Part shown: in pieces, positions 1 to 12,696 of the stretch | Position numbering within the stretch: position 1 is the stretch's first letter | How the letters are laid out: each line of letters starts with the position of its first letter | Assembly (NCBI GenBank): GCA_016840035.1 | Contig: JAEOTC010000169.1 | Location: 1-14,206, forward strand | DNA length: 14,206 bases | From: Candidatus Hodarchaeota archaeon | GTDB taxonomy: Archaea; Asgardarchaeota; Heimdallarchaeia; Hodarchaeales; Hodarchaeaceae | Direction of reading: 5' to 3' | Program-made: the position numbers and the translations under genes | Notes under the pieces: model-generated | Database searches by the model: none | What the model was told of the DNA's origin: nothing | What the model saw: the letters and a program-made list of their open reading frames with translations, nothing else

Positions 1-841
1 AATACAATAATAGTCCTGATTTGTTGATGACCATAAGTTTACGTAATCGATGGAATTGTAATAATCCTAGCGGTGCACTGACATAGGCTCGATATATGAG
101 CAAACTTCCCACTATAACACTTATATGCGAAGCAAAGTGTTGTAAAAAGATATGAAATTCGGGTTGTACAGCATTTTCTAAGAATCTAGCACTCACAACA
201 ACAACTAAAGGGATAGCAAAAAAGAAAATTATTGACATTTGAAGCATCAAGGATTGAGTTTTTTGCTTTTTAAGTGTAATCTGACCTTTAATCTTCTGAA
301 GAGAGTAAATTGATACGATAATTACGTATCCTACAAAATAAGCAGCAGGAAAGTTGGTTGTATAAAGAAGAATAAGTACCGTTAGGAGGATGGCAAAAAG
401 ATCCTCAATATCTCGAACGAAACTTAACTCAGTTGTCATGATATCTGGGAATAAAACAGGATAAATCATATTAAGAAGGAAAGCTCCGAGGAATATTCCA
501 TAAATTGCCGCATGAATAGGTGAGACTTGATCTTTCCGAAAGAATTCAATAAAAAGAAGAAAAACTCCAGAAGATAACCCACCATATAAGGGGAATAGAT
601 AGTTAACAATATTGCCTTCATTTCGATAAAATTGGACGGGATCTCCAATATTTAGGATGTAAAAGAAGAATTCAAATCCTACGAAAGCAATAAAGGCCAA
701 ATATAAAGCTATTAATATTCCAATAACAGGAATTCTTGTTTCTCGCCATCTAGTTCTCAGAGATAAAATTAAAAAGATGGAAACACCTATCTCCAGTGAG
801 AAAATAATAAATCCTATTATACTAAGTGTTCCAAATGCCAT
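1..841 (-). CDS. 7-transmembrane protein with the start of a probable C-terminal longin/roadblock-like domain (partial; runs off the window's left edge)
   Basis: Not in the ORF track; translated by hand. ATG at 841-839 opens a frame with no stop to the edge (280 codons): MAFGTLSIIGFIIFSLEIGVSIFLILSLRTRWRETRIPVIGILIALYLAF...HISVIVGSLLIYRAYVSAPLGLLQFHRLRKLMVINKSGLLLY. About seven hydrophobic segments are followed by a hhhhNKSGLLLY beta-hairpin typical of longin N-termini. Purine-rich AGGAAGGG lies just upstream on the minus strand. Confidence 0.85.
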   Translation of the reverse strand, partial: MAFGTLSIIGFIIFSLEIGVSIFLILSLRTRWRETRIPVIGILIALYLAFIAFVGFEFFFYILNIGDPVQFYRNEGNIVNYLFPLYGGLSSGVFLLFIEFFRKDQVSPIHAAIYGIFLGAFLLNMIYPVLFPDIMTTELSFVRDIEDLFAILLTVLILLYTTNFPAAYFVGYVIIVSIYSLQKIKGQITLKKQKTQSLMLQMSIIFFFAIPLVVVVSARFLENAVQPEFHIFLQHFASHISVIVGSLLIYRAYVSAPLGLLQFHRLRKLMVINKSGLLLY

Positions 842-980: not shown

Positions 981-1757
981 ATGACATCTTTTCTTTCTCA
1001 AATAGTTGAGGAAACACTTTCATACGAATCCAAGTATTCTAATCTTAAATTTGAATCCGTCGTTATTGGTATTCGGTACACCTGTGTACTTCTTTCTAAC
1101 GGGTCGTGTGGTGTAGCATATACATTAATTGACAACAAGGCAAAAAAAGAATCCCAAAAGAAGTATCTGTCGGAGAAATTTATTTCTGAGCAAGATCTTC
1201 CTACTGTGATGAATTATTGCACCTCAAAATTTTCTATATTCCGAAGTATCGGTATTGCGGCACTCAATGCATTTTCACAGGCAAATTTAATTATCGATAA
1301 GACGCAAGAAAATGAGTTGTTTAGCATTTTCTCAGAGAAATCAGGTACTGTAGGAATGATTGGAGATATACGCCCTATTACCCAATTTTTCGTCCAAAAG
1401 GGATTTAATATAAAATTACTTGATAAATCTTCCTCACCTAGCGACAATCCTCAAATAACATCGATTGATAATATTTTGGAACTAAAAAACTGCAATCATG
1501 TTATAGTATCGGGTTCGGCTCTTGTTTTTGAGAATTTTGATCTTATTCGTGACATTCTGCCCACTATTCAAGGTGAGCGCGTTCTCATTGGCCCATCTGC
1601 TCAAATCTTCCCCAAAATAGCCTTTAAACATGGTTTTACGTTCATTGGAAGTTCCAGAATTATTGATACAACCTCAACAGTGAGAGCAATCATGGAAGGA
1701 GGCGGATATCGTGCTTTTAAAGAATTTACACAGAAATACTCTTTTCGAGATATTTGA
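981..1757 (+). CDS. DUF364 family Rossmann-like protein (DUF4213/enolase-N-like domain + DUF364; putative heavy-metal chelation)
   Basis: Motifs VVIGIRYTCVLLSNGSCGVAYT, RSIGIAALNAFSQ, VGMIGDIRP, VIVSGSALV, LIGPSAQIFP, IMEGGG match the DUF364 pattern; 258 aa. Confidence 0.85.
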   Translation: MTSFLSQIVEETLSYESKYSNLKFESVVIGIRYTCVLLSNGSCGVAYTLIDNKAKKESQKKYLSEKFISEQDLPTVMNYCTSKFSIFRSIGIAALNAFSQANLIIDKTQENELFSIFSEKSGTVGMIGDIRPITQFFVQKGFNIKLLDKSSSPSDNPQITSIDNILELKNCNHVIVSGSALVFENFDLIRDILPTIQGERVLIGPSAQIFPKIAFKHGFTFIGSSRIIDTTSTVRAIMEGGGYRAFKEFTQKYSFRDI

Positions 1758-1841
1758 CTCTCCTGTTAGAATTTTGTCGAAAAGACCCAATAAGCGTTGA
1801 TGACACGCTTTAATCATTGTTGGCACTTTTCGATATCTCGA
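1740..1841. repeat. Cluster of CTTTTCGA / TCGAGATAT motifs, including a 9-bp inverted repeat
   Basis: TCTTTTCGA 1740-1748 and TCGAAAAGA 1777-1785 form an inverted pair. CTTTTCGA recurs at 1826-1833, overlapping the near-palindrome TCGATATCTCGA 1830-1841. Confidence 0.5.
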
Positions 1842-1904
1842 TGTATTATCTATCAACAGTTCCAATATCTTAATCACGACAGAAATAATTGGAAGATTTC
1901 ACTC

Positions 1905-2168
1905 ATGTCAGTAACGACTCAATTTGGATTCAAAAAGTCCTTAGACCGTCTAATGCAACTAGTATATATTTCATCGAACTTTTTCACCGACCTTGAGGTT
2001 CAAAACCAGGTTTGTGCACTGAATGTCAAAGATACCTATTCCGAATCCGAAAAAAATCAATTATTAACTTATTTTTTGGATTTAGTTGAATCTCTTTCCC
2101 TTGAAAGAATCTATCTCACTCAAGATCCCAATGATGAGAACCGTTATTTCTACAACGGAGGGTTTTGA
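1905..2168 (+). CDS. Small hypothetical protein (87 aa)
   Basis: The track starts this ORF at 1797, but the N-terminal extension looks non-coding. ATG at 1905 gives MSVTTQFGFKKSLDRLMQLVY...RYFYNGGF, a plausible helical protein with no recognised family. Confidence 0.6.
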   Translation: MSVTTQFGFKKSLDRLMQLVYISSNFFTDLEVQNQVCALNVKDTYSESEKNQLLTYFLDLVESLSLERIYLTQDPNDENRYFYNGGF

Positions 2169-2247
2169 CTTGTATTCAGATTACTATACTGTACCCAATA
2201 AGAAATCAACTCCCAAGAATGTGATACACTACTGGAAGGAACCCCGA

Positions 2248-2610
2248 ATGAGCACACAGAAGACAAATCAAAAATCGGTGGAAAAGCAAGAAAGAGAAGC
2301 CGAGGCCTCACGATTAGCTGATAGAGCACTGTTATTACTTTCATTCAAAGATACTCCAAGTCAAAATCTTCATCATGTATTACAAGTTTTGGGAATTCAT
2401 TCTATAGAAGAAAAGAAAAGTATCTTGCAAGAAATTTTCCGATTAATCCGAGAAGGTATTGTTTATGTACCCAAGGGTCTACCTTTGCTTATCGATCAGG
2501 GGATAGATAATCTTGATAACATCTCTGAAATCGATCTAGTCCTTCTCAAACCCTACGATCAGTTGATATCAGAAATTCAACGAGATATTTCCATTTTTAA
2601 CAATGGTTGA
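2248..2610 (+). CDS. Hypothetical protein with probable winged-helix domain (120 aa)
   Basis: The track's start at 2086 overlaps the previous gene; ATG 2248 is preceded by GGAAGGA (SD-like). The segment ADRALLLL...NLHHVLQVLG...EKKSILQEIFRLIREGIVYVPKG has the helix-helix-helix-wing pattern (LxxEGxhYxP) of MCM/RPA32 C-terminal-type winged helices. Confidence 0.65.
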   Translation: MSTQKTNQKSVEKQEREAEASRLADRALLLLSFKDTPSQNLHHVLQVLGIHSIEEKKSILQEIFRLIREGIVYVPKGLPLLIDQGIDNLDNISEIDLVLLKPYDQLISEIQRDISIFNNG

Positions 2611-2616
2611 TTCCTT

Positions 2617-3036
2617 ATGCAGAAGTTGAAGAAACTACCGTCTCAAAATTCTGAATTGATTAGTACAGCACAAATGAACGAACTTAAAATTCATTTAAGA
2701 TTATCAAATAGTATATGTGATGATACATTGACAGCTAAATGGCAACATATTCAACACATGATGATTGATTTAGACCTAGATCCTAAAATGAATATTAAAG
2801 AATTGGCACAGCTTTATTATAAATTTGAAGACTTAATTGAGGTTTTTAAGCTAAATTCTTACACTTTTCGCCAACTTGAGAAACTTTTGATAGAAATCGA
2901 AACGGTAAGGGATATGTTAGATAATTCACGCGATGTTCCCCTTCAACAACTTGTCTTCCAACTATCATCGTACGATATTCCATCATTAGGGGTGGGGAAT
3001 AACTCAATTCTAGAAAAACTCATGAAATATTATTAG
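2617..3036 (+). CDS. Hypothetical alpha-helical protein (139 aa)
   Basis: Clean ORF starting 6 nt after the previous stop; amphipathic helical pattern; no recognised motif. Confidence 0.7.
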   Translation: MQKLKKLPSQNSELISTAQMNELKIHLRLSNSICDDTLTAKWQHIQHMMIDLDLDPKMNIKELAQLYYKFEDLIEVFKLNSYTFRQLEKLLIEIETVRDMLDNSRDVPLQQLVFQLSSYDIPSLGVGNNSILEKLMKYY

Positions 3037-3049
3037 TACTGTCTCTTTC

Positions 3050-3093
3050 TTCGAGATATACTCATTGTCACCCGTTTTCATCCTTTTCGAGAT
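3050..3093 (+). repeat. Two further TTCGAGAT motif copies (TTCGAGATAT 3050-3059; CTTTTCGAGAT 3083-3093)
   Basis: Identical to 1744-1753 and 1741-1751 respectively. Confidence 0.5.
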
Positions 3094-3109
3094 CTATTCT
3101 GGGTATAAT

Positions 3110-3131
3110 TTTTGATATAATAATATCAAAA
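3110..3131. promoter_or_regulatory. Operator-like inverted repeat TTTTGATAT-AATA-ATATCAAAA
   Basis: Perfect 9-bp arms with a 4-nt spacer, about 59 nt upstream of the 3190 ATG. Confidence 0.5.
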
Positions 3132-3189
3132 GAATAAAAAATCCACTTATAGTTCAGATGTTTGATACAGAAAAACAAGGTCATTTATT

Positions 3190-4716
3190 ATGTCACTCCC
3201 TTTTTCCATTAATTCAGCTCGAGATTGGATAACTAACGTTCCATCTTTTCTCACCTCCCTTGAGGAATATTCTGATTTTGTAAGAAATGCAGGAGCAACA
3301 AGCTATCTTGCAAATACTCTTGTTCAAGTCTTTAATGAAGCGAAAGAAGAACTTCTGTTAACAATTTATTCTATTCTCAAAGAATCGTCTGATGTAGGAA
3401 AATTTGTTATGGTTCAAGTACTTTTAAATGCTACAAATATCTGGACTGATATAGTTCAGTCCGCACAGATAAAACCTGCATTAACAGCCCTTGCTCTCTC
3501 ACCAGACAAGCTGTATACCAAAGACGCTATACACTTATCTCAAAAACTTGAGGAAATGTCAACAGGGGACATAATCAAGGATAAGCTCGAGGACTCTATT
3601 TCAAATATGATCGAAGAAAGAAAAATGGAAAAATCCGCGCCAGAGCCCTTAAGAGACGATGTTTTCGGATCGAGTGCACCAGAAAAGAAGAAAGCAAAGA
3701 GAAGCATACCTCCTCCATCCCCTGAACCTACTCTACCACCCCCTTCTCCCCAACCAGCTCCAAAAGCAGCTCCACCTCCAGCAGCACCTGCTAGGGTATC
3801 TGAACCATCCCCTCCACCCCCCTCCGTATCAGTTGGTGCAAAAGCGGCAGGAGCAGCAAGATCCAGATCTGTAGAGAAGGAAATGTTTGATGAGGTAGAA
3901 GAGGAACTAGAAGCAGCTATGGAAGAACCTACACCTGCTGAAGAAGCTTTTGATGATCAAGCTATTGAGGATTTGAAGTTTGAGGAAGGAGCTACTCCAG
4001 TTTCAGGTACTCTTGGTATTGCACCTGGAGCTCCACCCCCAAAAAGTGTTTTCACGCATGTTCATTATTTCAATCGAATGAATTCCAGAAAAACTTACCC
4101 CTTCACAGTCTCATTATCCAGTGCTGCGAAGAAAGTGAGAGCTCGGAAGATGCATATCCTTTCGGGTGAAAGGGAAACAGAGAAACAGGCTGAATTTGAA
4201 CTTGATCATCTCACGAGGCAGATTATGGTAGAATTACTTATTTCTGGGTGTCTAGTACAACCTAACTTTCAGTATGTTGATCCTGATAATTTACCTGTCG
4301 AGCTAACCTTTTATATTACCCCACTTGTAGAAGCAGGGTATGCAGCTTCCAAGATTCAAGGACAGTTATTACTCAAGAATGATGTTGGAATCGTTCTTCA
4401 GAACCTTCCACTCTCGGATATTTTCGTTGTCAGTAATCGGATTTCTAAAATTGCGGCGCTTGTAGGTGCAATTGGAGGAGGAACACTACCTGCTCTTGAT
4501 TTTCTCTTTGGTGTTAATTTACAGGAGGCATTAACAGGTCAACTAGAATACACGGCTCCTGATATAGCAAGTTCCATCGATATCCGATCAATGATTACAG
4601 TAAGTCAAATTGCCATCTTTATTGTCTTTATCAGTATAGGATTACTTTGGTGGTGGCGTAAAGGACGATCTCGGCGCGCCCCTGAAGAAAAACTATCACT
4701 TAGTCTACCTCAATAG
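3190..4716 (+). CDS. Membrane-anchored hypothetical protein: helical N-domain, polyproline tract, acidic tract, beta-sandwich domain, two C-terminal TM helices
   Basis: 508 aa. Pro-rich PPPSPEPTLPPPSPQPAPKAAPPPAAP...SPPPPS (about 3709-3825). Acidic DEVEEELEAAMEEPTPAEEAFDD. Beta-rich HYFNRMNSRKTYPFTVSL...VELLISGCLVQP...LTFYITPL. Hydrophobic IAALVGAIGGGTLPALDFLFGV and IAIFIVFISIGLLWWW followed by basic RKGRSRR. Confidence 0.85.
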   Translation: MSLPFSINSARDWITNVPSFLTSLEEYSDFVRNAGATSYLANTLVQVFNEAKEELLLTIYSILKESSDVGKFVMVQVLLNATNIWTDIVQSAQIKPALTALALSPDKLYTKDAIHLSQKLEEMSTGDIIKDKLEDSISNMIEERKMEKSAPEPLRDDVFGSSAPEKKKAKRSIPPPSPEPTLPPPSPQPAPKAAPPPAAPARVSEPSPPPPSVSVGAKAAGAARSRSVEKEMFDEVEEELEAAMEEPTPAEEAFDDQAIEDLKFEEGATPVSGTLGIAPGAPPPKSVFTHVHYFNRMNSRKTYPFTVSLSSAAKKVRARKMHILSGERETEKQAEFELDHLTRQIMVELLISGCLVQPNFQYVDPDNLPVELTFYITPLVEAGYAASKIQGQLLLKNDVGIVLQNLPLSDIFVVSNRISKIAALVGAIGGGTLPALDFLFGVNLQEALTGQLEYTAPDIASSIDIRSMITVSQIAIFIVFISIGLLWWWRKGRSRRAPEEKLSLSLPQ

Positions 4717-4757
4717 CCAATTACAATCTTTATAGGATCTCCTAAGTAACTAGATGA

Positions 4758-5609
4758 ATGCCTATGACCTTTCGTACTGGAATTACCATCCAAGCTATTG
4801 GTGACTTAACTCCATCCAATGTCGTTGATCTTGCCATGGCCATCAATCTCAGACATATAGAATTTGATCCTTCCGTTTTTTCGGACATCACAAGAGTCAT
4901 TGAAAGATTGAATTCTGACCAAACCACAATCCATGCTCCTTACATGGAAGATTACAAAATGGATCTTTCATCTCAAACTCCTGAAATTGATAAGCTAATT
5001 GAGGACATTAATCACTGGCAAACAAGGATGAATATCATAGGTGTGGTAGTCCATCCCCCCCTTGACGCAGGAGGAGACATGGGGAAATTCTATGATCGTC
5101 TAGACCTCCTACCCCTTCCATTACTTGAAAATATGCCGTATCAAACATGGGAGGATTTCTTGGAATTTTTTGATACAATTAAGTCTAATGTGAATAATCC
5201 GTTGGGAATGTGTTTTGATATTCCTCATTCCTTCATAACAAACGGTGATCAGTTTCTTGAAGTCCCAAAGGAGGTACATAACCATTTATCTTCAGCAAAT
5301 GGTTATATTCATATTTCTGGAGGAACGGCAGAAGAAGATACTCATTATCCTTTATTAACTGAAGGGAATATGCCATTCCAAGAAGTTCCAGCTTTTCTAG
5401 ACCGAATAGCATTCAAGGGAACGGTAACTATGGAACTGTATCCCCGTTCATTCCAGGACATAGATAAAATCCTTCGCTCATACATTATGATGCTTGGGAT
5501 ATCCAAAAGAAGGATGCATAAGCTTTCTGTTCAGATTAAACGTCCATTTATTATGCGAAGAATCAATAACCTTGCGAAAACTAAACAACTCCCCTCTCAG
5601 AAAAGCTAG
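4758..5609 (+). CDS. Sugar phosphate isomerase/epimerase / AP endonuclease family 2 (xylose isomerase-like TIM barrel) metalloprotein
   Basis: Characteristic motifs TIHAPY, VVVHP, LLENMP, CFDIPH, YIHISG, DTHYPL..G, GTVTMEL. Confidence 0.85.
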   Translation: MPMTFRTGITIQAIGDLTPSNVVDLAMAINLRHIEFDPSVFSDITRVIERLNSDQTTIHAPYMEDYKMDLSSQTPEIDKLIEDINHWQTRMNIIGVVVHPPLDAGGDMGKFYDRLDLLPLPLLENMPYQTWEDFLEFFDTIKSNVNNPLGMCFDIPHSFITNGDQFLEVPKEVHNHLSSANGYIHISGGTAEEDTHYPLLTEGNMPFQEVPAFLDRIAFKGTVTMELYPRSFQDIDKILRSYIMMLGISKRRMHKLSVQIKRPFIMRRINNLAKTKQLPSQKS

Positions 5610-5616
5610 GTAGTTT

Positions 5617-6129
5617 TTATCTACTCGGTTCTTCAAAAAGACTCGTACCGAATACATTCTTAATTTTCTCCGATCTTGGTAACATATAACCAATATATAT
5701 GGGAAGAAATAATAATAGATATAATAGTAGAAAATCAATATTAATTTGAGGATGGTAGAGCTGAGTAATGAGAAATAATAGAACAACTGATCCAAGATAA
5801 TAGAATTGGACTATTGTTCGCATTACACCTTGGACAAACCAATGAATAGGTAGATGCTTATTATGAAAGATGAAGTAATAATAACTTCCTAAAGAATAGA
5901 GAAATAATGTGACCCCTACTAGACAGCTACCAGCAAAACCAGATAACATGGATATTTTTCTCGCATAGATCATACCAGAGGAAAAAAGAAGAGACCAAAA
6001 TATTATACCAGCAATCATAAGCCCGTATCCCAACGTAAGAACTCCTAGTGCTCTTTGAATTTGAACTGGCTCTTGAGCACTAATTTTTTCCATTACGTTT
6101 TCGATTTCTTTTTTGTCCATTTCCTCCAC
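5617..6129 (-). CDS. Four-TM hypothetical membrane protein
   Basis: 170 aa with four hydrophobic segments; start is either GTG 6129 or ATG 6120. Confidence 0.75.
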   Translation of the reverse strand: MEEMDKKEIENVMEKISAQEPVQIQRALGVLTLGYGLMIAGIIFWSLLFSSGMIYARKISMLSGFAGSCLVGVTLFLYSLGSYYYFIFHNKHLPIHWFVQGVMRTIVQFYYLGSVVLLFLITQLYHPQINIDFLLLYLLLFLPIYIGYMLPRSEKIKNVFGTSLFEEPSR

Positions 6130-9015: not shown

Positions 9016-9047
9016 TAAATGCCGAGCTCTCCTAACTATCCTCAGTG

Positions 9048-9061
9048 TTTAAGTACTTAAA
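9048..9061. promoter_or_regulatory. Palindromic back-to-back TATA boxes (TTTAAGTACTTAAA) for divergent hypD and GNAT genes
   Basis: Perfect 14-bp palindrome giving TTTAAGTA on both strands, roughly 30-40 nt upstream of each start codon (9015 and 9087). Confidence 0.55.
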
Positions 9062-9086
9062 GAAGCTTCAGGCTAGATGGAAGATA

Positions 9087-9563
9087 ATGGATTCAATTTC
9101 AATTAGAAAAGCCACTATTTCTGATGTACCTTCATTGGTACGGTTACGACGCTTAATGTTTGAATCAATGGGACATAAAAATCCCGAATTATTGGAAGCT
9201 GGTGATATAGCAGCAGCAGGATTTTTTAAACAATTTATTCCCACAAAGGAGTATCAGGGATGGGTTGCGGAGGATTCCACAACAGGAGAAATTGTGAGTA
9301 ATATTGGAGCTGTAATTGATCACCATCCACCAGGGCCAAACAATTTAACGGGAAAAATTGCTTATTTGATGAATCTATGCACTTTGGAGGAGTATCGACG
9401 ACAGGGGATTGCCCGAAAACTACTTGAAGCCGCTTTGGAATGGGCTAAAGGAATGAAAGTAAGTAGAGTATCATTACATGCCACTGAGATAGGAAGGGAC
9501 CTTTATGAGCAATTGGGATTCACCCAAACTAATGAAATGCGTCTTAAGTTTGAAAAAAGCTGA
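9087..9563 (+). CDS. GNAT family N-acetyltransferase
   Basis: MDSISIRKATISDVPSL start (ATG 9087); acetyl-CoA motif A MNLCTLEEYRRQGIARKLL; motif B VSLHATEIGRDLYEQLGF. Confidence 0.92.
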   Translation: MDSISIRKATISDVPSLVRLRRLMFESMGHKNPELLEAGDIAAAGFFKQFIPTKEYQGWVAEDSTTGEIVSNIGAVIDHHPPGPNNLTGKIAYLMNLCTLEEYRRQGIARKLLEAALEWAKGMKVSRVSLHATEIGRDLYEQLGFTQTNEMRLKFEKS

Positions 9564-9585: not shown

Positions 9586-10953
9586 CTATTGCAGTTTTTT
9601 CTCCAAATAGTCAGTAAGAGCAGTTAAATCGTCTTTGGAGAAAGATTTTACTTCCATTTTCTTTTTCTTGAAAGGTGACTCATCACCAAGAATAACAATT
9701 TCTTCGTATGAATCTTGAGAAAGGGCTTCTTCGATGCCAACGACAAACGAATCTTGAAATACGGGTTCTAAATCGGTTTGAGGGGGAATTGCAATTAAGA
9801 TACGCTTATTTTTTCCAGAAAGTGAAATCTGTATCCCATTATTACGCTGAAGAGCACCAATTGTAAATCCTTTAATTTTTCCAAGATTTTTCTTAATCTT
9901 TTTACTATATTCAGTCAAAAATTTATGATTTTTCCCAAGCTCCTTCAAGATAGGTGCTTTCTTTTCTTCCGTAACACCAGCCAGCCATTTTATTGCTTCA
10001 CGAGGATTTCCATGCGAATATGCATAAGCGGATTCAATATCAGATTTGCCTAAAGGCCATGTTGAATTTTCTTCTGTTAAGGTAAGATCGAATTTCTGAT
10101 GAAAATCTTTTAACATGTGTATACAGTAGTCTTGAATGTCTTTTTTTGTAAAACGTTTGAGTAATATTGGAGGTTCAATACGACTCTGAACAGCTGTGCT
10201 GGATAGGTCAAGAATCTTATCCCACAATGTTGCTAAGCATGCAAGGCAAAGAACAAAATTACTAGCTTCATTATGCATTTTTTTAATGCTTTCTAACAAT
10301 TGTAGTTCAGCTTCGGGCCCAAGAGCAATAAATAACGATTCTAGTTCATCAACAAAGAAAATCAAAGGCCTATCAACAGATTTCAAAATCACCTGCAAGG
10401 CCGCGAATGCTAGCTCTTCATCATCCATAATTGTTCTATTAAAGGATTTAGTCTCCTCATCCAGATCGAAACCTGTAAACCATTTTAATGCTAATTTAGA
10501 TTGCTTAGGATCCTTTAAAGCAAAAAATCCTTCGATCACTACGTTTCCAAGGCCAGGAAATTCAAATGCTGCATTCTCAACCTTCTTGTATTTCTCTACA
10601 AGATAATCTGCCACAAATTCTAGAAGAGCTGATCCTCCAGCCTTAACAGTTTCAAAATAGAAATGAGAATATATTCTATTGGGATTAGTAGGAACTGGAA
10701 CATAAACTACGTAAGCATTCGTAATCTGTTCGCGAACAACCCAATAAAAATGAGTTTTACCATAGCCAGCTTCAGCTATGACTGGAACGATCATTGATTC
10801 CCTCTTCTGTTTTCTTACTGTCTCCAAAGCATGAGAAATTCTATTTATGGCATCCTTATTAGGGCGGATCAAATTGAAAATTTCTGGTACATCTGCTCGA
10901 GCAGTGAAATTATGAAATGGGTTCTCAATAATTAGATTAGTTACTTGAGTCAT
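9586..10953 (-). CDS. AAA+ ATPase, Cdc6/Orc1- or BrxD(DUF2791)-like clade, resembling the ATPases partnered with cyanobacterial RcaD (RcaG-like)
   Basis: N-terminal NPF; Walker A variant IAEAGYGKTH (10779-10750); Walker B LIFFVDELES; arginine-finger-like VQSRIE; sensor-II-like GNPREAIK; extra C-terminal alpha/beta domain of about 100 aa. Confidence 0.85.
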   Translation of the reverse strand: MTQVTNLIIENPFHNFTARADVPEIFNLIRPNKDAINRISHALETVRKQKRESMIVPVIAEAGYGKTHFYWVVREQITNAYVVYVPVPTNPNRIYSHFYFETVKAGGSALLEFVADYLVEKYKKVENAAFEFPGLGNVVIEGFFALKDPKQSKLALKWFTGFDLDEETKSFNRTIMDDEELAFAALQVILKSVDRPLIFFVDELESLFIALGPEAELQLLESIKKMHNEASNFVLCLACLATLWDKILDLSSTAVQSRIEPPILLKRFTKKDIQDYCIHMLKDFHQKFDLTLTEENSTWPLGKSDIESAYAYSHGNPREAIKWLAGVTEEKKAPILKELGKNHKFLTEYSKKIKKNLGKIKGFTIGALQRNNGIQISLSGKNKRILIAIPPQTDLEPVFQDSFVVGIEEALSQDSYEEIVILGDESPFKKKKMEVKSFSKDDLTALTDYLEKKLQ

Positions 10954-10959
10954 TTTAAT

Positions 10960-11427
10960 CTAGGCCTCGAATATTAAATAGTAAAATACGCCTGTACCTG
11001 TATCGGATGTAATACCTCCATACCCTGCGTGCGATTTGGACATTGCTGTCTGTAAAGTTAGTACCCCTTGATCATGAAAAGATAGAACTTTTTTATCAAA
11101 GTACGGATCAGAGATCCGTTTTTCGGCTAGCTTTTCACGGATCTCTGGAATACGAACTAATGGTTTCATCGGGGTCGCAAGGGAGGTATATGCTTTTCGT
11201 AAAAGGGATAAAAATTGTTTATCACTCAGTTCGGTTTTCATCGGTTTTTGACCATTAAGATACTTCTCTCCCATGTTCGTTAAACAATATACGCTTTTTG
11301 TCCCTTTTTTAAGTTGAATCAGTCCTTTATCGGAAAGATCAGTCAATAAGCTCTTCTCATTTTCCGTTCTAGCGTAGTAACCAGTGTCTCCAAGAAAATG
11401 GATGATTTCGAGGTACGAAGTATGCAT
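10960..11427 (-). CDS. Tandem winged-helix DNA-binding protein, RcaD-like
   Basis: First wHTH: KSLLTDLSDKGLIQL...VYCLTNMGEKYL. Second domain: LSDKQFLSLLRKAY...LVRIPEIREKL..ISDPYFDKKVLSFHDQGVLTL...GI....G.FYYL. This matches, from recollection, the RcaD C-terminal pattern (SDEEIL...LPIFHLRQKL..LSRDELD.ALY.L...D.IEL...GI....GG.LFFI). Ends 6 nt upstream of the ATPase ATG. Confidence 0.75.
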   Translation of the reverse strand: MHTSYLEIIHFLGDTGYYARTENEKSLLTDLSDKGLIQLKKGTKSVYCLTNMGEKYLNGQKPMKTELSDKQFLSLLRKAYTSLATPMKPLVRIPEIREKLAEKRISDPYFDKKVLSFHDQGVLTLQTAMSKSHAGYGGITSDTGTGVFYYLIFEA

Positions 11428-11451: not shown

Positions 11452-11477
11452 ATATTTGAGAATCATATTTAGGAATC
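11452..11477. repeat. 13-bp tandem repeat ATATTTGAGAATC / ATATTTAGGAATC
   Basis: Two adjacent copies, 11/13 identical, overlapping a TATA-like AAATATAAT (minus strand) about 25 nt upstream of the wHTH gene. Confidence 0.5.
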
Positions 11478-11571
11478 ATCAGGATAATATATTTTTATTA
11501 AACATTGGGGGCAAATTAATGAAAGGGGGATAAACCGAGCTGATTAATGACTGAACTCGTGGTTTTTTTAC

Positions 11572-12696
11572 ATGATTCTTGACGATTTACAGAAAATCTC
11601 TGGTTTAGATACTGACGACATGTTTGGGACGATGTTTTCCTGGCCTAGTTTAATTGAAACCATTATAAATAGTTCAATTGAGATTAAAACAAATGTTTCA
11701 GTAGGTAAATTTCATCTATCCTATACAAAACCCATATCGAGTATTCTAATTTGTGGGATGGGTGGATCCGCAGTAAGTGGAGATTATATTGCCACATATT
11801 TTGCCAAAACTCTTTCTCAACCGATACTTGTGCAACGAAATTATTCTCTGCCTAAATTTGTGTCTACGAACACTCTTGTTATAGCAATCTCATATTCAGG
11901 CAACACAGAGGAAACACTTGCTGGAATTAGGAAAGCCGTCCAGGTTGAATGTCCACTAGTTTGTATTGGAAGTGGGGGAAAGGTAGAAGATTTTTGTGTA
12001 AAAAACCGGATTCCATTCTTCAAAATTCCATCTGGAAATCAACCTCGTGCATCATTTCCATTATTATTATTTCCGATTCTAAAAATTCTTGGTGCTATGA
12101 GCATCGCAAAATTAGATGAAAATGTTATACAAGAGGTTATTCGTAATCTAAAGACAATGCGAGAACTCATACGGCCTCAAACTCCAACCTCCGAAAATCA
12201 AGCAAAACAAATCGCTGAAAGACTATTCAACCATATTCCCATAATTTGGTCCCCGTATTATTGCGTAGCTAATCGGTTTAAATGTCAAATAAATGAGAAT
12301 TCAAAGCAGCTTGCGATTGCAGAGGAATTACCTGAATTCAACCATAATCATATTGTCGGTTTTCAGAAGCTTATCAAAGAAAATCCTCATATAGTAGTAA
12401 TTTTTCGGTTTCCTTCCGAACATGCCAATGTTTCCCTTCGATTCGAAATTTCTAAGGAAATTGTTGAACCAAAGGTGGAGATACTAGAAATTCAAATCCA
12501 ATCTGGTGATTTACTTAGCCAACTCGTTACGGCAACTTACATTGGAGATTATATCTCAATATACCTGGCTTTACTCAACAACCAAAATCCGAATACGGTA
12601 GACAGCATTGATTTTCTTAAAGAACAGATGGAAAAGCGGGGAAAAACGCAATCTTCATTGATGAGTGAATTAGATAAATTATCATCAAGCGAATAA
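11572..12696 (+). CDS. pgi/pmi: Bifunctional phosphoglucose/phosphomannose isomerase (PGI/PMI, SIS fold)
   Basis: GMGGSAVSGD, SYSGNTEET, QPRAS, RFKCQINENSK and ELPEFNHNHI motifs. Confidence 0.93.
   Translation: MILDDLQKISGLDTDDMFGTMFSWPSLIETIINSSIEIKTNVSVGKFHLSYTKPISSILICGMGGSAVSGDYIATYFAKTLSQPILVQRNYSLPKFVSTNTLVIAISYSGNTEETLAGIRKAVQVECPLVCIGSGGKVEDFCVKNRIPFFKIPSGNQPRASFPLLLFPILKILGAMSIAKLDENVIQEVIRNLKTMRELIRPQTPTSENQAKQIAERLFNHIPIIWSPYYCVANRFKCQINENSKQLAIAEELPEFNHNHIVGFQKLIKENPHIVVIFRFPSEHANVSLRFEISKEIVEPKVEILEIQIQSGDLLSQLVTATYIGDYISIYLALLNNQNPNTVDSIDFLKEQMEKRGKTQSSLMSELDKLSSSE

Follow-up and report, generated by a model that had tools for sequence, protein, structure and literature searches.

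A winged-helix protein and a short ORC/Cdc6-clade AAA+ ATPase encoded as a conserved gene pair in Hodarchaeales: relation to RcaD/RcaG-type modules

The pairing of a DNA-binding protein with a P-loop ATPase that concerns us here was named in 2002, with the RcaD-RcaG proteins of Calothrix/Tolypothrix (Fremyella) sp. PCC 7601 (Noubir et al. 2002, summarised in PMC2799420). RcaD [CAC39267], a protein of 285 amino acids (aa) that is best conserved at its C-terminal end, binds the cpc2 (phycocyanin) promoter; its gene is located directly upstream of, and co-transcribed with, the gene for the ATPase RcaG, which may aid the binding (PMC2799420). In this work we have analyzed a pair of similarly arranged genes in the archaeon Candidatus Hodarchaeota archaeon (Hodarchaeales, Asgard), found in a stretch of 14,206 nucleotides (nt) that comprises positions 1-14,206 of contig JAEOTC010000169.1 (assembly GCA_016840035.1) and is called the window below. 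The upstream gene encodes a tandem winged-helix protein of 155 aa (working label P0002) and the downstream one an AAA+ ATPase of 455 aa (P0001).

The wider class to which such pairs belong has been predicted more recently. The Orc/CDC6-HerA/FtsK capture systems comprise an Orc/CDC6 ATPase, inactive and active restriction endonuclease (REase) domains, HerA/FtsK and an accessory protein with 2-4 winged helix-turn-helix (wHTH) units, and an anti-invader role has been predicted for them (Rakesh, Aravind and Krishnan, NAR 2024, PMC10853773). A similar division of labour is described for SspB-SspC of the Ssp phosphorothioate system, a multi-wHTH DNA-recognition subunit and a Cdc6/Orc-clade AAA+ ATPase, which we liken to the window pair by the description in PMC10853773. 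The initial annotation of this DNA had proposed a candidate undescribed system; with the module type named in 2002 and the wider class predicted in 2024, this part of the proposal does not stand. The window pair is a minimal, effector-less, core-genome variant of a known, biochemically uncharacterised module.

The differences from the described systems are clear. RcaD is almost twice as long as P0002 (285 aa versus 155 aa), RcaG-type ATPases of about 700 aa carry a C-terminal region of about 340 aa that is absent from P0001, and the host of RcaD-RcaG is a cyanobacterium, whereas the window comes from an archaeon without phycobilisomes. The capture systems share with the window an ORC/Cdc6-family ATPase and a multi-wHTH protein, but the window and the loci syntenic with it are devoid of HerA/FtsK and of an active REase, and neither an inactive REase domain nor a C-terminal wHTH was recognised on the ATPase. 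The capture systems are mobile neighbourhoods and their published role is itself a prediction, whereas the window pair is a fixed core locus. The genes for SspA, SspD and SspE of the Ssp system are likewise missing from the window.

The gene pair, predicted folds and related modules

The two genes are located on the minus strand, with the P0002 gene upstream and a spacing of 6 nt (10954-10959), between plus-strand genes for a GNAT acetyltransferase (9045-9563) and a PGI-type SIS protein (11572-12696); coordinates and neighbours thus proved to be as initially annotated. Word-based searches retrieved about 55 close homologues for each protein, nearly all from metagenome-assembled genomes (MAGs) of Hodarchaeales/Heimdall archaea. 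Because of these homologues and the constant adjacency within the order, both are regarded as genuine genes and not chance open reading frames (ORFs). In the following list A1 denotes the alignment of 20 P0001 orthologues, A4 and A5 the superfamily alignments, and A7 an alignment of 20 RcaG-type ATPases of about 700 aa.

10960..11427, minus strand: P0002 gene, ORF with ATG start, encoding the RcaD-like tandem winged-helix partner of 155 aa (about 55 homologues of 53-85% identity; model pLDDT 80)
11242..11427, minus strand: WH1, residues 1-62, MarR/PadR-like wHTH, presumed DNA reader (AlphaFold model and structural matches)
10963..11232, minus strand: WH2, residues 66-155, C-terminal winged helix conserved in RcaD-like partners, predicted ATPase dock (model and profile match)
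9586..10953, minus strand: P0001 gene, ORF with ATG start, encoding the ORC/Cdc6-clade AAA+ ATPase of 455 aa, a short RcaG-type form
10915..10923, minus strand: NPF motif, N11 P12 F13 (invariant in A1 and A7, at least 90% conserved in A4/A5)
10753..10776, minus strand: Walker A AEAGYGKT, residues 60-67 (G63, G65 and K66 invariant in A1; K66 invariant in 74 superfamily members)
10339..10362, minus strand: Walker B IFFVDELE, residues 198-205 (D202, E203 and E205 invariant in A1; D202 invariant superfamily-wide)
10180..10182, minus strand: R258 of the SRIE motif, candidate arginine finger (invariant in A1, aligned with the invariant R308 of the RcaG-type group)
9997..10011, minus strand: sensor-2/lid motif GNPRE within SHGNPRE, residues 315-319 (invariant in A1; R318 at least 90% conserved superfamily-wide)
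9589..9882, minus strand: C-terminal alpha/beta domain of about 100 aa, residues 358-455 (beta-beta-beta-alpha-beta-alpha-beta-alpha)

The catalytic residues of P0001 are intact and invariant in A1, and all ATPase motifs listed in the initial annotation were found and are invariant across the 20 orthologues. In the AlphaFold2 model, built with the family alignment (pLDDT 84), residues 20-339 adopt an ORC/Cdc6/TnsC/MuB/BrxC-like AAA+ fold, and their nearest structural relatives are all DNA-bound AAA+ proteins; the ORC/Cdc6- and BrxC-like fold suspected from the sequence was borne out by these structural matches. The likeness to Orc1/Cdc6, TnsC and MuB is at the level of fold only, without sequence-level membership, and no transposase genes are found nearby. 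P0001 scores below the Pfam cut-offs for AAA_22 (23.3 bits, cut-off 27) and AAA_16 (18.7 bits, cut-off 32.6), families that are matched at E ≤0.001 by 38 and 41 of the 74 superfamily members, respectively. The sequence search against solved structures gave no useful match for P0001 or its family alignments.

The two ends of the ATPase deserve separate mention. The NPF segment is located outside the predicted partner interface in a part of low model confidence (pLDDT <50 for residues 1-24, 10882-10953), and the motif could serve to dock a neighbouring protomer. The C-terminal domain has no conserved catalytic residues, only two glycines being near-invariant (18 members). Sequence comparisons of this domain with NucS_C, with the C-terminal regions of RcaG-type ATPases and with the PDB gave no match, the fold search having covered residues 20-339 only. 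A degenerate NucS-like nuclease was considered for this domain and rejected, since no profile matched and neither acidic residues nor lysines are conserved in it.

For P0002 the AlphaFold2 model obtained from the family alignment (pLDDT 80) and the structural matches agree on a tandem winged helix, so that the two wHTH-like units initially proposed for the 155-aa protein were confirmed. WH1 superposes on DNA-bound MarR/PadR regulators over about 60 residues with a root-mean-square deviation of 1.5-2.0. The best structural neighbours of WH2 include protein-binding winged helices, i.e. the Rpa2 WH bound to PolD, Stn1 and the C-terminal WH of MCM, and the whole chain is matched in Foldseek by the tandem-WH scaffold proteins RPC6/RPC34, ScpB, Nse and Vps25. 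The protein is basic (isoelectric point, pI, 9.0), both winged helices are equally conserved, and the curated library returned a weak match to HTH_45. An allophycocyanin-like nature of P0002 was dismissed, the matches to allophycocyanin beta subunits (E 0.2-0.7) and to NCBIfam apcB (E 0.12) being regarded as due to chance.

The kinship of the pair with RcaD/RcaG-type modules is supported by profile comparison with operons of similar build. The ATPase profile A1 aligned with A7 at a probability of 100% in hhalign (E 2.2e-40) over 322 columns (9-333), from the NPF motif to the lid; P0289, compared with A1, gave an E value of 3.6e-12. In a library of 1.84 billion proteins the A1 hidden Markov model (HMM) matched ATPases of about 700 aa at E 1e-9 to 1e-22. 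The proteins encoded upstream in those operons (alignment A6) matched the P0002 family (alignment A2) at 96.6% (E 6e-10) over P0002 residues 72-152, that is WH2. The following loci represent the related modules.

L043: 221-aa protein, then 707-aa ATPase, then 726-aa protein with PDDEXK_1/Cas4 and DUF87
L045: 296-aa protein, then 704-aa ATPase, then 677-aa protein with PDDEXK_1, FtsK_alpha and FtsK_SpoIIIE
L042 (3118-10536): 231-aa protein, then 713-aa ATPase, then PDDEXK_1 protein, between Cas6 and Cas1-Cas2
L044: 207-aa protein, then 770-aa ATPase fused to a Schlafen domain (SLFN_AlbA_2)

It is in L043 and L045 that the REase-HerA/FtsK fusion of the capture systems is added to the ATPase and its partner, and the context of L042 suggests that some module members are linked to CRISPR adaptation loci. 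Both window genes are therefore homologous to multi-WH/ATPase/nuclease-HerA/FtsK operons, and to this extent the RcaD/RcaG kinship proposed at the outset stood; the named RcaD and RcaG proteins themselves are likened to the pair indirectly, by the architecture and sizes described in PMC2799420. Where cluster look-ups for the distant ATPase relatives gave a name at all, it was an Asgard or archaeal one, and RcaG was not among them.

A quick tree of the ATPase core (FastTree, midpoint-rooted, SH-like supports) resolved three groups: a short, partner-associated clade including the window ATPase (support 0.99), its sister group of stand-alone Asgard forms of 520-650 aa (joint support 0.97), and the RcaG-type clade (support 0.88). 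A partner fused into the long Asgard paralogues was looked for and rejected, since their C-terminal parts do not match A2 and their neighbours match neither A2 nor A6.

The comparison of P0001 with BrxD of BREX systems, also made initially, was upheld in part. P0001 has a BrxC-like fold and distant family members reach the Pfam family BrxC_BrxD (PF10923), which is matched by 12 of the 74 superfamily members at E ≤0.001, P0134 and P0167, among those tested, exceeding the cut-off. P0001 itself had no match to PF10923 at E ≤1, no PglZ, PglX or BrxHI genes are present nearby, and BrxD, described as a stand-alone ATPase, is associated with a helicase and not with a wHTH protein (PMC12839542). The sole PF10923 match in the genome (18.8 bits, cut-off 22.2) belongs to the N-terminal part of a 779-aa ORF on another contig (G000:C9:66886-70299), a second, distant superfamily member, to which A1 gave a weak match (E 2e-5, positions 10-102).

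Relatives of this kind raise the possibility that the pair is a sensor of invading DNA, in which the winged-helix protein would recognise foreign or modified DNA and the ATPase would assemble and either activate an effector encoded elsewhere or block the invader by coating it. The coupling to nuclease-HerA/FtsK genes in L043 and L045, to a CRISPR adaptation locus in L042 and to a Schlafen domain in L044, the occurrence of fusions to RNase_T, TIR, SEFIR, NucS_C and PDDEXK besides Schlafen among the 74 superfamily members, the BrxC_BrxD matches and the role predicted for the class in PMC10853773 all speak for it. Several HerA-like proteins are encoded in the genome, which fits an effector in trans, their genes being located on other contigs. 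How far this applies to the window copy can be judged from its distribution.

Distribution of the pair and its chromosomal position

Six-frame HMM searches over 400 Asgard genomes found the ATPase in all 21 genomes of the genus and in both of the sister family; intact assemblies carry a single full-length copy. In these genomes of the order the partner gene lies directly upstream of the ATPase gene with one exception, genome G064 (a single contig, 70% complete), where the ATPase is at C1:2106963-2108285 and only the first 85 partner residues were found, about 72 kb away (2179604-2179858); the two were separated either by a rearrangement or by a fault of the assembly. An Orc1/Cdc6 gene is located 11 kb from the ATPase gene in G064. 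The pair was also found in three genomes of two other families, and the coupling is kept in more distant pairs of about 41-42% identity (L021, L004), the intergenic gap being 1-7 nt in L001, L021, L063 and L065. The adjacency of the two genes is thus seen across Hodarchaeales and in more distant Asgard pairs.

The partner of one other Asgard family (L065:3974-4762 of genome G398; G399:C165:3634-4239) is extended at its N-terminus and carries an insert, which brings it to 262-284 aa, near the length of RcaD; these proteins may represent an intermediate with three winged helices. The word-based searches found no fused or longer forms of P0002 (318-2000 aa), which is weak evidence, as 285 aa, the size of RcaD, lay between the two length ranges searched. 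A scan of 185,579 species genomes for the two best-conserved peptides of the partner family found only 20 loci of Hodarchaeales/Heimdall MAGs, the motifs being too strict for distant homologues. For the ATPase, the profile search of 1.84 billion representative proteins yielded only 286 relatives at E ≤0.001, which marks a small, distinct family. No match to either protein was obtained with tblastn against 72,556 plasmids, and a literature search for an Asgard description of the ATPase or partner family gave nothing relevant.

The wider window contains housekeeping genes, among them those for HypD, an alpha-amylase and geranylgeranyl reductase (GGR), and the synteny of the pair with PGI, GGR and HypD is kept across the order. 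Compared with the syntenic locus in the complete genome CP070695.1 (L001), the ATPase is 67% and the winged-helix protein 58% identical, and the neighbours HypD, GGR, PGI and amylase are 75%, 72%, 57% and 57% identical, respectively. The identities of the pair are akin to those of these four proteins, so the pair evolves like its housekeeping neighbours. ORFs without a Pfam match are also present in the window, at 3190-4716 (plus), 2086-3036 (plus), 5617-6129 (minus) and 2-841 (minus), one of which encodes a 508-aa protein.

These data argue against an anti-invader function of the window copy. No linked HerA/FtsK or REase nuclease was found among the window ORFs or at the syntenic loci L001-L003, and no effector is present in the window or at any syntenic locus. 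Both genes occur, in single copy, in all 24 genomes of the order that were searched, and they keep one chromosomal position; their rate of change is that of housekeeping genes, WH1 is conserved and not fast-evolving, and the GC content of the pair equals that of its flanks. In PADLOC-DB 2.0 no family matches P0001, and P0002 gave weak, chance-level matches to LmuC (E 0.0025) and RT_II-A (E 0.013). The copy in L004 (42% identity; 1130-5636) gives some weight to the other side: there the pair stands beside a VapBC toxin-antitoxin pair and an ATPase_2 gene. The L004 ATPase gene also overlaps (ATGA) a gene for a 256-aa coiled-coil protein that is absent at the window locus. On balance we consider a sensor of invading DNA unlikely for the window pair, and the anti-virus defence role initially suggested is not upheld for this copy, which behaves as a single-copy, syntenic core pair.

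We favour instead a domesticated regulatory or chromosome-associated module, not a mobile defence system, to which we give roughly even chances. It is preferred because an effector is absent, because the locus is fixed, single-copy, syntenic and vertically inherited, and because WH1 is conserved.

Predicted complex and possible role of the pair

Complex prediction for P0001 and P0002 gave an ipSAE of 0.62 (median of three runs), the best of three controls reaching 0.00. Of 80 solved complexes 58 attained this mark, as did two of 110 mismatched pairs; the counts apply only approximately here, since the pair was modelled with alignments of our own. The runs share at least 91% of contacts, and the partner pLDDT is at least 81. 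In the model WH2 residues 86-154 lie on the ATPase core beside the nucleotide site and WH1 is left free. On the ATPase side the predicted interface is formed by the P-loop-adjacent residues 59-62, by 205 and 209 after Walker B, by the LWD segment 240-248, by the SRIEPP segment 256-269 and by the sensor-2 region 310-319. Conservation at the interface is about double that of the proteins overall: 19 of 28 are invariant or near-invariant in the ATPase (overall 29%) and 16 of 26 in the partner (overall 35%). The model supports, but does not show, a direct contact of WH2 with the ATPase.

The initial annotation had also likened the pair to a split Orc1/Cdc6, and a factor of this kind acting at the replication origin or in chromosome segregation was considered. 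In contrast to Orc1/Cdc6, the winged helices here belong to a separate chain, for which binding to the ATPase is predicted, and the C-terminal domain of P0001 is alpha/beta, not a winged helix. P0001 has no match to TIGR02928, and by profile its family groups with RcaG-type and BrxC/BrxD-like ATPases and not with initiators. Five bona fide Orc1/Cdc6 genes are located on other contigs of the same genome; in a complete relative the Orc1/Cdc6 genes, at 1.49, 2.62, 2.72 and 3.82 Mb, are far from the pair and none is linked to it. The predicted target of WH2 is the ATPase, not DNA, and the start position of the genome record is arbitrary. A split initiator in the replication sense is therefore very improbable.

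Another explanation is that the pair is a protein-adaptor module, whose winged helices bind proteins and whose ATPase remodels or assembles a protein complex, with no action on DNA. It would agree with the structural neighbours of WH2 (Rpa2 WH, Stn1 and the MCM C-terminal WH), with the whole-chain matches of P0002 to RPC6/RPC34, ScpB, Nse and Vps25, and with the acidic character of the ATPase and its helical insert. However, WH1 resembles DNA-bound MarR/PadR regulators, P0002 is basic, every one of the closest structural neighbours of the ATPase is a DNA-bound AAA+ protein, homologous modules occur together with nucleases and DNA translocases, and RcaD has been reported as a DNA-binding protein (PMC2799420). 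We regard such an adaptor as quite improbable.

Under the domesticated-module reading, the pair would be a two-subunit module of the RcaD/RcaG type. P0002 would serve as the adaptor, its WH2 docking to the ATPase core next to the nucleotide site and its WH1 being free to read DNA, and P0001 would be an ATP-dependent assembly factor, as its closest structural relatives TnsC, MuB, Orc1/Cdc6 and BrxC assemble on DNA, dependent on ATP, at places chosen by a partner. Most likely, the winged-helix protein would be loaded onto, or stabilised at, defined sites of the chromosome in an ATP-dependent manner, which would result in gene regulation or in local remodelling of DNA or chromatin. The parallel would be RcaD on the phycocyanin promoter, where RcaG has been proposed to assist binding (PMC2799420).

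Several points weigh against this proposal. The predicted interface spans the arginine-finger and sensor-2 regions, so the partner could cap the ATPase or regulate its oligomerisation instead of recruiting an oligomer. Both P0001 (pI 6.2) and its large helical insert (pI 5.0) are acidic, unlike the DNA-contacting inserts of ORC proteins, and DNA binding of the pair is deduced from predicted folds. The closest ATPase relatives, the Asgard forms of 520-650 aa, have no recognisable partner, neighbouring or fused; most of the characterised or predicted relatives, including the TIR, SEFIR, RNase_T, NucS_C, PDDEXK and Schlafen fusions, are conflict systems, and the tie to the named RcaD/RcaG proteins is indirect.

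A stronger version of the proposal, tentative and in our view less probable than its converse, is that a conflict module has turned into an indispensable chromosomal factor in Hodarchaeales, a site-specific, ATP-driven loader or remodeller of DNA with a conserved target. Hodarchaeales are the Asgard lineage reported as closest to eukaryotes. If true, a defence ATPase would have been domesticated into core chromosome biology in the archaeal group nearest the eukaryotic stem; the passage of module members between such roles is sparsely documented. Should the pair turn out to consist of a conventional transcription regulator and its helper ATPase, it would be of modest interest.

In either case the minimal two-protein form (155 + 455 aa), fixed across an Asgard order, comes with a testable interface model and a conserved promoter element. 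The pair could be a tractable system for the biochemistry of RcaD/RcaG-type modules, a question that dates from 2002 and that also bears on the nuclease-FtsK capture systems.

The promoter region

Upstream of the P0002 gene a conserved element has been identified, followed by a pair of repeats read from the sequence.

11475..11500, minus strand: conserved candidate promoter element of the operon, made up of a TATA-like, AT-rich box (11487-11500) and then the 12-mer TATCCTGATGAT (11475-11486)
11452..11477, minus strand: two tandem 13-mers, GATTCCTAAATAT and GATTCTCAAATAT, just downstream of the 12-mer

Of 21 Hodarchaeales loci examined, 19 of which could be scored relative to PGI, 18 have the TAYCCYSATGWT element 36-134 nt upstream of the winged-helix protein start. 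The element stays by the winged-helix gene where PGI is 1.1-2.7 kb away, which means that it belongs to the operon of the pair. The sequence of the 12-mer is partly palindromic (ATC.T.A.GAT), which is in line with a site for a dimeric winged-helix protein, and the conserved element is a candidate promoter plus operator; that the pair autoregulates through it is speculation. The 12-mer was also tried as a genome-wide regulon motif and rejected, for it is not enriched in the genome (15 occurrences versus 9.7 expected, with no coherent downstream genes). The tandem 13-mers are absent from the closest relatives (L022-L025) and are specific to this genome.

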